Positions 14,687 to 28,398 are shown, numbered from the stretch's first letter. The stretch: 42,849 bases of DNA from Thermodesulfovibrionia bacterium (GCA_038918635.1 JBCKZY010000005.1:1-42849), one strand, 5' to 3'. Numbers and translations are program-made. Notes: generated from the sequence alone by a model not told the origin.

Positions 14687-14882
14687 CGTCATACCCGCTA
14701 AACCTGTCCTCGACTCCGATCGGGGAGCGGGTATCCAGGAAACATGTCACTTCTTAAAAAGACTGGATTCCCGTTCCCTGCTTACTACCTGCTGGAACAA
14801 GCCCTGAACCGTATGGTACAGGGCAAGCTTCACGGGCCTGTCCCGCCTGTCCCGATTATTCGGGGATGTATCGGGGAATGAC
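14687..14882. repeat. CGTC-type palindromic (REP-like) repeat, composite copy, in the nuoC-nuoD spacer
   Basis: cgtcatacccg...cgggtatccag ... ctggattcccg ... ggggaatgac architecture shared with 21330-21396, 23872-23982, 25993-27675 and 40850-41012. Confidence 0.8.
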
Positions 14883-24943: not shown

Positions 24944-25942
24944 TTATCCCTTTGTCCCTTTCTTTTTCTGTGCAGAGACCCTTACCGCAAGTTTAACCGC
25001 CTCGATCATACTTGACGGGTTTGCCTTATTCTTCCACGCAATATCAAACCCTGTTCCATGGTCAGGAGAAGTCCTGATTACAGGCAGCCCTACTGTCATA
25101 TTAACACCAATATCGAATGCAAGCATCTTAAAAGGGATGAGCCCCTGATCGTGATACATACAGACTACTATATCAAAAATGCCGATATATGCCTTATGAA
25201 ATACGACATCAGGCGGATATGGCCCGGAGATATTAAGCCCCATGCCGGCAGCTTTATTAATCGCTGGTATTATAACCCCTTCTTCCTCTTCTCCCAGGAG
25301 TCCTGATTCTCCTGAATGGGGGTTTAGACCGGCAACAGCAATACTCCCAGATTGTATGCCGATCATATCCAACCCTTTTCCCGCAAGCTTAAAAGTCCGC
25401 AGAAGAAGTTCTTCGGTAATCATCAAAGGGACTTTACTCAAGGGAACATGAATGGTGCTCAGAATAACCCTTAACCTCTCACTCACGAACATCATAGAAA
25501 ACTCCTCAGTCCCGGTCAACTGGGCTAAAAGCTCTGTATGCCCACGCCATAAAAAACCTGCCATTCCTAAAGACTCCTTTGAAACAGGGGCTGTTACAAT
25601 TGCCTCTGCCTCTCCGCCTAAAGCCAGTTCCACCGCCTTCTCCACATAGCTCACAACAGCCCTGCCAGCCTCTGCTGATGAAGTACATCTTTTGTAAGAT
25701 ATTTGCGGTCCGATATCAATGACTTCAATCTTTCCGTCAGAGGGGCTTGATTCTGCCATCAATTTGATAGGAACTACCTCAACAGACAGCCCTGAAAGTT
25801 TCAAGGCATCCCGGATAATATCCGCTCTTCCGATAACAATTGGGTTACATACCCCGCTTAACGATTCAGAACAGAGCGCCTTTACTGTAACTTCCGGCCC
25901 TATTCCACCCGGATCTCCCATTGTAATAACAATATTTTCCAT
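24944..25942 (-). CDS. pdxA: 4-hydroxythreonine-4-phosphate dehydrogenase
   Basis: ITMGDPGGIGPE, GHTE, GLNPHSGE, MYHDQGLIP, RTSPDHGTGFDIA. Confidence 0.95.
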   Translation of the reverse strand: MENIVITMGDPGGIGPEVTVKALCSESLSGVCNPIVIGRADIIRDALKLSGLSVEVVPIKLMAESSPSDGKIEVIDIGPQISYKRCTSSAEAGRAVVSYVEKAVELALGGEAEAIVTAPVSKESLGMAGFLWRGHTELLAQLTGTEEFSMMFVSERLRVILSTIHVPLSKVPLMITEELLLRTFKLAGKGLDMIGIQSGSIAVAGLNPHSGESGLLGEEEEGVIIPAINKAAGMGLNISGPYPPDVVFHKAYIGIFDIVVCMYHDQGLIPFKMLAFDIGVNMTVGLPVIRTSPDHGTGFDIAWKNKANPSSMIEAVKLAVRVSAQKKKGTKG

Positions 25943-25992
25943 TATCAATCCTTTACATAATAGTTGAAGAACTCTTTTTTTCCAATAATATT

Positions 25993-26061
25993 GTCATACC
26001 CGCTAAAACTGTCCTCGACTCCGATCGGGGAGCGGATATCCAATAACATTACGAAAAGACT
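25993..26061. repeat. Left half of a CGTC-type repeat interrupted by the IS110 element
   Basis: gtcatacccgctaaaactgtcctcgactccgatcggggagcggatatcca...aaaagact matches 14688-14764. Confidence 0.8.
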
Positions 26062-26162
26062 AGACATAATGGCTGACAGGAAGCAAAAAGACTTGCCCCT
26101 TGCAACGTGGGTTATACTCAGATAGGAATCCAAATACAGAGCCAAAACCAAGGAGGCAAGTC

Positions 26163-27275
26163 ATGAAAGATTATATCACAGTAGTAGGACTTGACGTACA
26201 CAAAGATTCAATAGAGGTTGTCTTAGCCGATACATTTGGTAATCGGGAGATTCGGCACTATGGCAAGATTGGTGGAGACATGGTATCGTTGGACAAGGCA
26301 GTGAGGAAGCTAGTAAGTAAGGGGAGCAGATTAGAGTTTGTTTATGAGGCAGGGCCGTGTGGTTATGAGATATATCGTCATCTTACAAAACAGGGGTATC
26401 AATGTGCAGTGGTAGCGCCTTCGATGATTCCCAGAAGAAGCGGTAACCGGATAAAGAATGATAGTCGTGACGCTGAGGCGCTGGCCAGGCTGTACCGTGC
26501 CGGAGAGTTGACGACAGTTTATGTTCCTCAGGAGGAAGATGAAGCGATGCGGGATCTGATACGAGGCAGGCAGGATGGGGTAAAAGGGTTGCGTACAGTC
26601 AGACAACAGCTTGGAGCCTTTCTGCTTCGTCATGGTATTCGCTATGGAGGCAAAACAACCTGGGGCCCTTCTCATACGCGCTGGCTGGCGGATGTCAGCA
26701 TGGCGCATCCTGCGCAACAGATTACGTTACAGGAATACATTCATGCTGTAAGGGAGCGCACTGACCGTATAGAGCGGATGACCGGAGAGATATTAAAGTT
26801 TCTGTCTCAGTGGCGGATGGCCCCGTTAGTTGAGGCATTGCAGGCTCTTAGGGGGGTAGCTCCTATAGTTGCCGTTACGGTGGCGGCGGAGATCGGTGAC
26901 ATGAGAAGGTTTGGAAATCCCAGGCAATTGATGGCATATTTGGGTTTAGTCCCTTCAGAGCATTCCAGCGGAAGCACGGTCAGCCGGGGCGGTATTACAA
27001 AAACCGGCAACACTCATGCCAGACGAGTACTTGTTGAGGCAGCCCAAACGTATAGTTACTCTGCAAGAGTGAGCAGACCGTTATTGAAACGGCAGGAAGG
27101 ATTAGCCCAACCGATCCGCGATATTGCATGGAAAGCGCAGGTGAGACTGTGTGGCCGGTTCCGACGTCTTATGGGCAGAGGTAAATCCAGAAACACAGTG
27201 GTAGCAGCTACTGCCCGTGAACTTGCCGGTTTTATGTGGGCTATTGCACAGCAAGTAAAGATACCAACCGTATAA
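26163..27275 (+). CDS. IS110 family transposase/recombinase
   Basis: VGLDVHK, YEAGPCGY, KNDSRDA (DEDD RuvC-like), YLGLVPSEHSSG (catalytic Ser region), ITKTGN; AGGAGG RBS before the ATG at 26163. Confidence 0.95.
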   Translation: MKDYITVVGLDVHKDSIEVVLADTFGNREIRHYGKIGGDMVSLDKAVRKLVSKGSRLEFVYEAGPCGYEIYRHLTKQGYQCAVVAPSMIPRRSGNRIKNDSRDAEALARLYRAGELTTVYVPQEEDEAMRDLIRGRQDGVKGLRTVRQQLGAFLLRHGIRYGGKTTWGPSHTRWLADVSMAHPAQQITLQEYIHAVRERTDRIERMTGEILKFLSQWRMAPLVEALQALRGVAPIVAVTVAAEIGDMRRFGNPRQLMAYLGLVPSEHSSGSTVSRGGITKTGNTHARRVLVEAAQTYSYSARVSRPLLKRQEGLAQPIRDIAWKAQVRLCGRFRRLMGRGKSRNTVVAATARELAGFMWAIAQQVKIPTV

Positions 27276-27332
27276 TATAACCGGGCAGATACATTAAGAG
27301 GAGGCCATCACAACAAAGACACACGACAAAAT

Positions 27333-27526
27333 ATCCAGAGCATAGTCGGGGACGCGACCACGTTTTGGGAGAACCCTCGTGGAATCCAAGGAATAGGCAA
27401 CCGCCTGATTTCCGCCACTAGAGCGAGGCAGCTCCATTACGAAACCAAGTCATGCGGTCTGAATCCGCGTATATCAGATTGATCAAACGTCGATGTATAG
27501 GTCCCGTCCCTGTTTATACTTTGGAT
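27333..27526 (+). ncRNA. Predicted bridge RNA / seekRNA of the IS110 element
   Basis: Closing stems atccagagcata/tatactttggat, gggacg/cgtccc, gacc/ggtc and acgttt/aaacgt enclose one hairpin with an internal loop bearing GGAATCCA and ACTAGA and a second hairpin flanked by ATATCAGA; these match the target and donor sequences. Folded by eye. Confidence 0.7.
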
Positions 27527-27599
27527 TACAGTCAGCTTTATAACCCATATGAAAAGGGCAAGGAAGATCTATTGCTTGTTGACATTTGTCAGCCATATC

Positions 27600-27675
27600 G
27601 GATTCCCCGAATAAGTCGGGACAGGCCCGCCCAGAGGACCCGCTTCGCCGAATCGAGGCGAGTCACGGGAATGAC
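27600..27675. repeat. Right half of the IS-interrupted CGTC-type repeat
   Basis: ggattcccc...cgggacaggccc...cacgggaatgac. Confidence 0.75.
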
Positions 27676-27711
27676 AGACATTCTTGAGCGCATCATGCTG
27701 CACATTAATAC

Positions 27712-28398
27712 TCACACAGACCCAGAAGAGCCGCATTCAATATTTGGAAGAATTTTTAATAGTTCTCCAAAGCCATTGATCATGAAGTCAGCGTCTTTCA
27801 GTGTTTCTCTGGAACGGAATCCATAAGTGACAGCGATTGATCTCAGTCCTGCGGCTCTACCTGCCTCAATATCGAAATTGCTGTCGCCTATGATTACAGC
27901 TTCATCACCGGAGACAGCGAAACGGTCAAGGATCTCCAGTACCGGGACTGGAGAGGGTTTTTTTTCGGACAGGCTGTCACTTCCAAAGACCGCGTCAAGT
28001 GAATCGAGGATACCTAAACCTGCAAGAATCTTTATTGAGTACTCTTCTCTCTTGTTTGAAAGGACGGTTTTTCTATAATGTCCGAGTTTTAACAGGGTTT
28101 CCTTTACCCCGGGGTAGGCAACTGTCTTATCAAGAAGGTGGGCTGAATAATAATCGAGAAATCTTTTAACGGCATTTTCAAACCGATTGCTCTCTGAATG
28201 ACCGGCTTTAGCAGGGTCGTCTGAAACTGTTAAGGACCTGATGAGACTTGTGATACCGGAGCCTACCATGGCCTTTATCTCTTCAACCGAGTAGGGCTTT
28301 TTATCGAAAGGCTCTAGAGCGAAGTTAATAGAGTCGGTGATATCACGGCTGGTGTCAGCAAGAGTGCCGTCAAGGTCAAATATCAAAAGCTTTAACAT
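27712..28398 (-). CDS. HAD-superfamily hydrolase, phosphoglycolate phosphatase-like
   Basis: FDLDGTLADT, LSNK, KKPSP, IGDSNFDIEAG. Confidence 0.88.
   Translation of the reverse strand: MLKLLIFDLDGTLADTSRDITDSINFALEPFDKKPYSVEEIKAMVGSGITSLIRSLTVSDDPAKAGHSESNRFENAVKRFLDYYSAHLLDKTVAYPGVKETLLKLGHYRKTVLSNKREEYSIKILAGLGILDSLDAVFGSDSLSEKKPSPVPVLEILDRFAVSGDEAVIIGDSNFDIEAGRAAGLRSIAVTYGFRSRETLKDADFMINGFGELLKILPNIECGSSGSV

Follow-up and report, generated by a model that had tools for sequence, protein, structure and literature searches.

A Predicted Guide RNA in the 3′ End of an IS1111-Group Insertion Sequence Directed at a Host Palindromic Repeat

Introduction

Among the closest described systems are the bridge RNA of IS621 and the seekRNA of ISPa11. 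For IS621, the bridge RNA passages of Durrant et al. (2024, PMC11208160; structures 8WT6 and others) describe one RNA that holds a pair of target guides and a pair of donor guides, each guide pairing with one DNA strand and including the core dinucleotide CT. The left end, upstream of the gene, encodes this RNA, in which the donor loop takes the form of a simple internal loop. For ISPa11, the seekRNA passages of Siddiquee et al. (2024, PMC11187229) place the RNA downstream of the transposase gene, with a top-strand match 5′ of the bottom-strand match, the two overlapping at the insertion point within a repetitive extragenic palindrome. The same passages report a circle intermediate carrying a junction promoter and co-purification of the RNA with its transposase, and describe target matches only. 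In a figure legend, the paper of Durrant et al. treats the ISCARN28/ISSfr2-like subgroup of ISfinder's IS110 family as IS1111 group and has ISCARN28 as one of three examples with predicted guides. A full-text search, together with PMC11187229, PMC11208160 and their supplements, brought up no paper on the RNA of the ISCARN28/ISSfr2-like subgroup beyond one figure legend, and no experimental work on that subgroup was found in the same literature.

Here we describe an insertion sequence in a window of 42,849 nucleotides, the whole stretch of DNA that was analysed (GCA_038918635.1 JBCKZY010000005.1:1-42849), from a Thermodesulfovibrionia bacterium belonging to an environmental, uncultured lineage. 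It is very probably an intact IS1111-group element of the ISCARN28/ISSfr2 subgroup whose 3′ end encodes a guide RNA of ~190 nt. Like ISPa11, it has its RNA downstream of the transposase gene, the same order and overlap of top- and bottom-strand matches, and a repetitive extragenic palindrome as target. The ISPa11 transposase is only ~30% identical, over a partial alignment; whereas its RNA is known from co-purification and its junction promoter from a circle intermediate, the element here is known from sequence alone and its junction promoter is computed from the joined ends. On the other hand, both donor strands are assigned here in addition to the target strands. With IS621 the element shares the single RNA with target and donor guide pairs, guides that each pair with one strand and include a core dinucleotide, and a DEDD recombinase with an SG motif. 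It differs from IS621 in that its RNA lies in the right end with the reverse guide order, its donor guides flank a multi-loop hairpin, its core reads AG rather than CT and its protein is only ~23% identical. An earlier note had proposed a natural RNA-programmed recombinase, a reading that the covariation of guides supports; as the class was described in 2024, we regard the element as a further member of it and not as a new system.

Results and Discussion

Boundaries and Ends of the Element

The element is a 1538-bp insertion sequence of the IS1111 type (plus strand) that interrupts a host palindromic repeat at ACT|GGATTCC. Its features are as follows.

26062..27599, plus strand: the whole insertion sequence, delimited by uninterrupted ACTGGATTCC repeats (n=60), a second copy on contig C85 and relatives sharing the AGACATA...CATATC ends
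26059..26061, plus strand: left target flank ACT, the end of the AT-rich spacer of the host repeat; matches ACT of the 3′ loop strand of the RNA
26062..26068, plus strand: 7-nt left extension AGACATA, the first two bases, AG, being the core-like dinucleotide
26069..26078, plus strand: left subterminal inverted repeat ATGGCTGACA, 10 bp, 7 nt in from the left end
26163..27275, plus strand: transposase/recombinase of 370 aa, an open full-length frame with a DEDD RuvC-like domain and a Tnp domain
27587..27596, plus strand: right subterminal inverted repeat TGTCAGCCAT, 10 bp, followed by the 3-nt extension ATC at 27597-99
27600..27606, plus strand: right target flank GGATTCC, the foot of the second palindrome of the host repeat
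27579..27584, plus strand: TTGACA, −35 half of the circle-junction promoter (computed junction)
26065..26070, plus strand: CATAAT, −10 half of this promoter, which is formed only when the ends join in a circle (computed junction)

The junctions read ACT|AGACATA on the left and CATATC|GGATTCC on the right, and the insertion is orientation- and site-specific without a target duplication. The boundaries follow from the uninterrupted repeats together with the second copy, which is 5′-only (C85:434-664, minus strand; L002) and sits in a different instance of the repeat with an identical ACT|AGACATA junction. This left-end copy is 98% identical, stops abruptly at the equivalent of 26279 and continues into unrelated sequence, which reflects either a deletion or an assembly join.

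The non-coding ends are unequal, with 324 nt downstream of the transposase gene (3′) versus 101 nt upstream (5′), and the longer end is downstream as expected for the IS1111 group. A 3-nt right extension is a trait of the IS1111 family, and the same layout of 7 nt and 3 nt recurs in the 26 relatives whose ends were found. The 10-bp repeats fall in the 7–17 bp range of IS1111-group subterminal repeats. The 7-bp left extension is given as a trait of IS1111 members in PMC11187229, and the ends, repeats and putative promoter as a whole fit IS1111-type elements as portrayed there and in the IS1111 passages of PMC11208160. Traits of IS110 proper were not found: the 101-nt left end has no match to the covariance model R1 described below, and the subterminal repeats measure 10 bp, not 2–3 bp.

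The computed circle junction is spanned by TTGACA-18 nt-CATAAT, a spacing and sequence that by eye are kept in relatives. On the plus strand within the element, no internal sigma-70-like promoter for the RNA was detected, only a weak, hybrid promoter-like ATAACA-16-CATAAT at 26043-26070, composed of host flank and left end. This hybrid site could give low expression of the integrated copy.

Transposase and Relatives

The transposase matches PF01548 (4.6e-17) and PF02371 (1.8e-23) and scores 265.8 bits against NCBIfam NF033542, "IS110 family RNA-guided transposase", at a cut-off of 140. Its motifs are GLDVHK at residue 9, YEAGPCG at 61, NDSRDA at 99 and GLVPSEHSSG at 261-270, the last being an instance of the C-terminal GL-P----S(t)G motif that the IS1111 passages of PMC11187229 name as an IS1111 trait. 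Among PDB sequences it has weak matches to the recombinases of ISCro4 (6.3e-9) and IS621 (3.5e-6).

A blastp search against 195 ISfinder transposases, parsed from source data of PMC11187229 that hold 345 names, gave the best identities with ISSfr2 (55%), ISPye17 (53%), ISCARN28 (53%), ISVisp2 (49%), ISSph13 (48%), ISSso6 (47%) and ISEc45 (46%), while IS1533 (31%) and IS4321, ISEc11, IS1111A and IS621 (23–26%) are distant. A FastTree phylogeny of 194 ISfinder proteins and the transposase places the latter in one clade with these seven best matches (SH-like support 97), with IS1533 and ISSsu15 as sister to the clade (support 100). With midpoint rooting only, a 96-supported split puts the transposase together with IS1111A, ISEc11, ISPa11, IS4321 and IS1533, and IS110, IS621 and ISEc21 opposite. 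The subgroup is nevertheless deep, at 24–31% identity to IS1111A, ISEc11, ISPa11, IS4321 and IS1533. Besides its transposase identity of 46–55% to the ISCARN28/ISSfr2/ISPye17/ISSso6/ISEc45 subgroup, the element shares the subgroup's end layout, in which 7 nt precede a subterminal repeat starting with ATG and AG follows the right end. Unlike subgroup members, it has a host from the GTDB phylum shared with Nitrospirota, a palindrome of its own host as target and a GG target core.

A scan of species-representative genomes uncovered an 87%-identical copy (L031) in an uncultured-bacterium assembly and 67%-identical copies (L032-36) in a Nitrospirota assembly. Homologs at E ≤ 1e-40 occur in 28 of 401 genomes of the host phylum, this genome included, at 31–74% identity. 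In plasmids, tblastn returned 823 records at E ≤ 1e-20, the best being 57.5% identical and some annotated as ISSfr2, ISSso6 or ISEc45 family; 17 of the 823 were taken for comparison.

The left flanks of four of the Nitrospirota copies (L032-L035) are identical over at least 200 nt, and in three of the four the right flank is common as well, so the element there lies inside a larger multi-copy element and the insertions are not independent. These four carry ~170 extra nt between stop codon and RNA, and L032 diverges within its 3′ end, where no right end was found.

Conserved Structure of the Predicted RNA

Downstream of the transposase gene, the 3′ end holds the following features.

27334..27525, plus strand: predicted structured seekRNA/bridge RNA, in which a long stem P1 (27334-64 with 27486-27525) closes a multi-branch junction
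27375..27428, plus strand: target-binding arm, with stem CCTCG/CGAGG (27375-79 with 27424-28), internal loop and inner hairpin 27390-27413
27452..27470, plus strand: hairpin H, ATGCGG/CCGCGT (27452-57/27465-70), which parts the two donor strands in the multi-loop; helix 7 of the model, 100% of cells paired

The minimum-energy fold of 27276-27599 is a multi-stem structure closed at ~27333-27526 (−93.9 kcal/mol, z=−3.48, 1 of 100 shuffles as good), and RNAalifold on 15 relatives of at least 65% identity gave 53 pairs, ten of them with changes on both sides. The covariance model R1 built from such ends comprises 197 positions and 46 pairs, two small invariant hairpins being omitted. Full-length matches in transposase sense were obtained in 29 of 34 sources, the exceptions in that search being the truncated L052, the 31–33% identical L063-L065 and the left-end fragment L002; L063-L065 and L052 are excluded from all counts. 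In a further search, 21 of 24 sources (8 earlier ones and 16 plasmid relatives) matched, and the plasmid relatives L072, L074 and L084 gave no match at E ≤ 1e-5. R1 further matches loci that carry an ISSfr2 (91.9 bits), ISSso6 (57.8) or ISEc45 (34.7) family annotation. The 68%-complete assembly of this genome contains one R1 copy only.

Across 26 sequences, 94.4% of cells are standard pairs versus 77.2% after shuffling and 35–48% with the partners slid, and 33 of the 46 pairs show compensatory change on both sides, with 0 of 500 shuffles reaching any of five measures, in an alignment that was fitted to R1 and thus leans towards structure. The difference from the shuffles is large all the same, and compensatory changes are seen in all 21 pairs of the closing stem. 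Antisense matches score 22–37 bits versus 194–229 bits in sense and G-U pairs are frequent, which assigns the structure to the transposase-sense strand. The closed multi-stem fold proposed earlier is thus borne out by fold energy and compensatory changes, and the comparison of homologous non-coding ends suggested at the time did yield a conserved structure. The strings reported in the earlier note were confirmed base for base, CCTCGT (27375-80) and GCGAGG (27423-28) forming five Watson–Crick pairs and one G-U pair.

Two helices were rejected. A CGACG/CGTCG stem closing a donor "internal loop" gave way to ACGTT (27360-64)/AACGT (27486-90), pair 34/160, which covariation favours, and an ATCA/TGAT hairpin drawn by RNAalifold over ATATCAGA was dropped, its pairing by eye being lost in L055, L059 and L060.

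The Host Repeat

The target motif ACTGGATTCC is present in 60 copies in the assembly (1.93 Mb, 68% complete), where 3.7 are expected. Empty sites read ACTGGATTCC, and nearly all copies belong to a composite palindromic repeat, in which GTCATACCCG..CGGGTATCCAG is followed by an AT-rich spacer of 9–23 nt and then by ACTGGATTCCCG..CGGGAATGAC. At the present locus this repeat is split as ...AAAAGACT | AGACATAATGGCTGACA ... TGTCAGCCATATC | GGATTCCCCG... and the element accounts for one interrupted repeat, while CTGGATTCC occurs 124 times in the 1.93 Mb, giving more than 100 potential landing pads.

The repeat is modular, with instances at 14761, 21366 and 27600-27680 and genome-wide, its stems often carrying nested inserts such as CCTGTCCCGCCTGTCCCGATT; the family looks REP/BIME-like or MITE-like. 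The sole ACTAGATTCC in the genome, on contig C57 at ~1459 (plus strand), is a repeat unit with AG for the usual GG. It could be a natural variant or the footprint of a copy that excised with the donor core.

Predicted Target Guides

The internal loop of the target-binding arm offers two strands.

27381..27388, plus strand: 5′ loop strand GGAATCCA, complementary to the right side of the target
27417..27422, plus strand: 3′ loop strand ACTAGA, the sense of left flank ACT plus element start AGA, which pairs with the bottom strand

Together, these predicted loop strands show complementarity to both strands of host-repeat DNA flanking ACT|GGATTCC. The frame CCTCG...CGAGG is constant across the alignment and both loop strands vary. 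The Nitrospirota copies, for example, have loop strands CCGCACTAT and GCTTTTAGA and the flanks ...CATTTT | IS | AGTGCGTAGC. With one representative for each of 19 distinct 5′ strands (guide classes), the 5′ strand matches its own right flank at 79 of 95 positions (five per class), compared with 30.7±4.8 for shuffled flanks (maximum 54; 0 of 100000), and the 3′ strand matches four left-flank positions in 52 of 72 cases, compared with 27.1±3.5 (maximum 44; 0 of 100000), for 18 classes with L050 and its 2-nt gap at the left junction omitted; the shuffles ignore relatedness, so significance is overstated, the guide classes nonetheless being all different. Pairing with the last base of the left flank, at 15 of 19 matches, is not significant (5776 of 100000 shuffles as high), and some right flanks fit poorly, with 2/5 in L041 and 3/5 in several others.

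Weak if taken alone, the matches of 6–8 nt at this element exceed chance because the loop strands covary with the flanks in relatives. The proposal that the 5′ strand is aimed at the repeat target has thereby gained the covariation across 19 guide classes that had been asked of it. ACTAGA matches the left junction and covaries with the left flank; as the 3′ strand always ends in AGA, the start of the element, it spells the left junction and not the empty target. Against the empty target this strand is mismatched, its A facing the C that partners the first G of GG. GGAATCCA lies 5′ of ACTAGA and their targets overlap at T|GGA, the same order, top-strand match 5′ of bottom-strand match, that the seekRNA passages of Siddiquee et al. 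(2024, PMC11187229) give for IS1111 elements.

GGAATCCA is also present at 26125-26132, within the 101-nt left end, a recurrence that the earlier note had listed as a caveat. It would be the starting point for a different reading, with the guide in the left end as in IS110/IS621-type elements and the 3′ structure being something else. We consider this extremely improbable. The C85 copy, whose right flank is absent, and L031, which has the same right flank, read GGAGTCCA at this place, and relatives with other targets read GGTATCCA; the left-end motif does not track the target and is therefore a coincidence and not a guide, which settles the caveat. Moreover, a two-loop RNA would not fit in so short a left end, and it is the right end that contains both the covariance-supported RNA and every covarying guide.

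Three relatives of 50% identity (L056-L058), from other genomes belonging to the same class, insert in the loop of a different palindrome, GATTCCGGACA|AGCCGGAATGAC. Their 5′ guide, offset by one base, shows complementarity over 10 nt.

Predicted Donor Guides

Both donor strands flank hairpin H in the multi-loop, and the IS1111 passages of Durrant et al. (PMC11208160) remark on donor nucleotides in a multi-loop for many orthologues.

27471..27477, plus strand: left-donor guide ATATCAG, the last five bases of the element, ATATC, plus core AG; four right-end classes matched
27447..27451, plus strand: candidate right-donor guide AAGTC

These strands, adjacent to the predicted hairpin, show complementarity to both strands of the joined ends ...CATATC|AGACATA.... 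Within the host phylum, ATATC-AG in the RNA and ...CATATC/AG at the ends are both invariant, which is consistent with a guide but provides no test; the test comes from proteobacterial relatives. The five RNA bases before AG equal the last five bases of the element as ATATC at 27 loci, ATGAG at 7, ATCGG at one (L081) and ATAAG at one (L078, ISEc45 family). Two further loci with ATGAG right ends have ATCAG in the RNA, a 4/5 match, and L037 reads ATATC-CG.

For the other donor strand, positions were counted back from the second base before hairpin H, so that RNA positions 1–7 face positions 1–7 of the element's top strand. Over 22 distinct RNA/end combinations, RNA positions 3–7 pair with positions 3–7 of their own element in 78 of 110 cases, compared with 61.4±3.4 after shuffling (maximum 74; 0 of 100000), or in 73 versus 54.1 with Watson–Crick pairs only (1 of 100000), figures that are overstated in that the shuffles ignore relatedness; L082, with no ends found, is excluded from the donor counts. 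Examples of the pairing are AUCGUC/GATGAT, UGGUC/GACCA, UGGG/CCCA, CCAU/ATGG and UUGUC/GACAA. In the present element this guide is short: G49, T50 and C51 of AAGTC would pair with G, A and C of the left end (26063-65) and A47 with T 26067, that is GTC (27449-51) plus A27447, 4/7 positions. The second donor guide that had been missed earlier is most likely this AAGTC, just 5′ of the ATGCGG hairpin.

The earlier proposal that ATATCAGA (27471-78) equals the circle junction holds for its first seven bases, ATATCAG, which track four right-end types, and not for the eighth base, A, which fails to follow the third base of the element in L057, L059, L060 and L062. The hairpin-loop GTCTGA (27458-63) was also rejected as second donor guide, being lost in L031 and L033 despite the same ends.

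With guides for target and donor in hand, the 3′ structure may be weighed as a regulatory or stabilising 3′ UTR acting in termination, as antisense or in translational control, with the protein picking the repeat and the matches arising by chance. Indeed, the individual matches at this element are short, a protein could recognise a structured repeat such as the target, and Rfam families gave no match, a cmscan of 25900-27750 at E ≤ 10 returning only a chance snoRNA match inside the coding region. Yet the loop strands vary in step with the flanks among lineages at unrelated sites, at least some of which by eye do not look like repeats, the donor strands vary with the element's ends, and a terminator-like site is absent from the plus strand within the element, which makes a mere 3′ UTR very improbable.

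As a guide RNA, the structure provides a natural example of a putative RNA-guided recombinase for which all four guide strands are assigned, each backed by covariation. Taken together, the ~40 relatives represent reprogramming as it occurs in nature, across many targets and four types of donor end, and could inform how IS1111-type tools are designed.

Expression and Mobility

Parts of the element were found in 20 public runs, and six DNA runs hold at least half of the sampled words, with two reaching 95%. Contigs from four RNA libraries, 85–99% alike, cover the transposase and RNA regions, a likeness showing that they come from relatives; one 155-nt RNA-library contig spans 27358-27509 with two differences. 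The RNA-library contigs end variously (27457-27509) and are therefore silent on the ends of the RNA. As a sign of expression they are only a hint, as DNA may be present in the libraries. A skip joint 26168>27419, with a 24-letter side, was discarded as belonging to other relatives.

These data also bear on whether the element, though of the right kind, is a dead or dormant relic in this genome, an immobile copy with inherited complementarity. The assembly holds just one full copy and the truncated left-end copy on C85, and neither a circle junction nor an empty allele of the exact site was seen. Against this, the transposase frame is open and full-length with its DEDD and SG motifs, both ends, both subterminal repeats and the four guide strands are intact with an exact fit to the flanks, six public DNA runs contain half or more of the sampled words, and repeats collapse in assemblies such as this 68%-complete one. 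A relic is thus an unlikely reading.

Proposed Mechanism

By analogy with the family (Durrant 2024; Siddiquee 2024), the element would excise as a circle whose joined ends form the TTGACA-18-CATAAT promoter, which would drive the transposase and then the downstream RNA. The RNA would bind the DEDD recombinase and hold circle junction and repeat copy together, and the recombinase would exchange strands at the core-like dinucleotide (donor AG) in one orientation and without duplication.

Core Dinucleotide and Strand Exchange

In the phylum set, the right flank starts with AG, like the element itself, in 16 of 19 guide classes. This is a core-like dinucleotide that resembles CT in IS621 in its role, and it is included in every guide. 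In the lineage of the element here, L031 and L039, the target has GG, and the 5′ strand has CC where it is CT elsewhere, while the 3′ strand keeps AG. All five left junctions carry donor AG, (A)CT|AGA (the element here, C85, L031, L039 and RNA-library contig X17), and all three right junctions of this lineage carry target GG, ATC|GGATTCC. L037 and L070 appear analogous with AA, as judged only by their right junctions and guides. In all these cases the 5′ target strand agrees with the target core, and the 3′ strand retains donor AG, except in L037, where it is also AA.

Donor AG at the left and target GG at the right imply that, on donor and target alike, the inherited crossover is located 5′ of the core. 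The core may thus differ between donor and target, and the pattern would fit exchange of one strand 5′ of the core followed by replication, a suggestion we make tentatively and regard as possible rather than probable. A 2025 preprint (10.1101/2025.10.25.684509) has put forward such a top-strand insertion or copy-out route for an IS110 element. Two-strand exchange through a Holliday junction across a matched core would not predict the AG/GG pattern. The difference between GG and AG cores provides an inexpensive way into the mechanism of strand exchange and, if the suggestion is true, natural insertions of this lineage would be a ready record of which strand transfers.

Core usage in the subgroup looks loose. 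In the alphaproteobacterial L070, L071, L073 and L076, the 5′ target strand retains TT at the core, complementing AA, and the right flanks begin with AA, AG or AG+AA. Two junctions deviate from the guides: the left junction of L050 lacks two bases, reading ..AAC|GACATA where the guide predicts ..ACT|AGACATA, and at the right junction of L076 an additional AG separates the right end from the sequence predicted by the guide. Both are possibly scars of imprecise events at the core.
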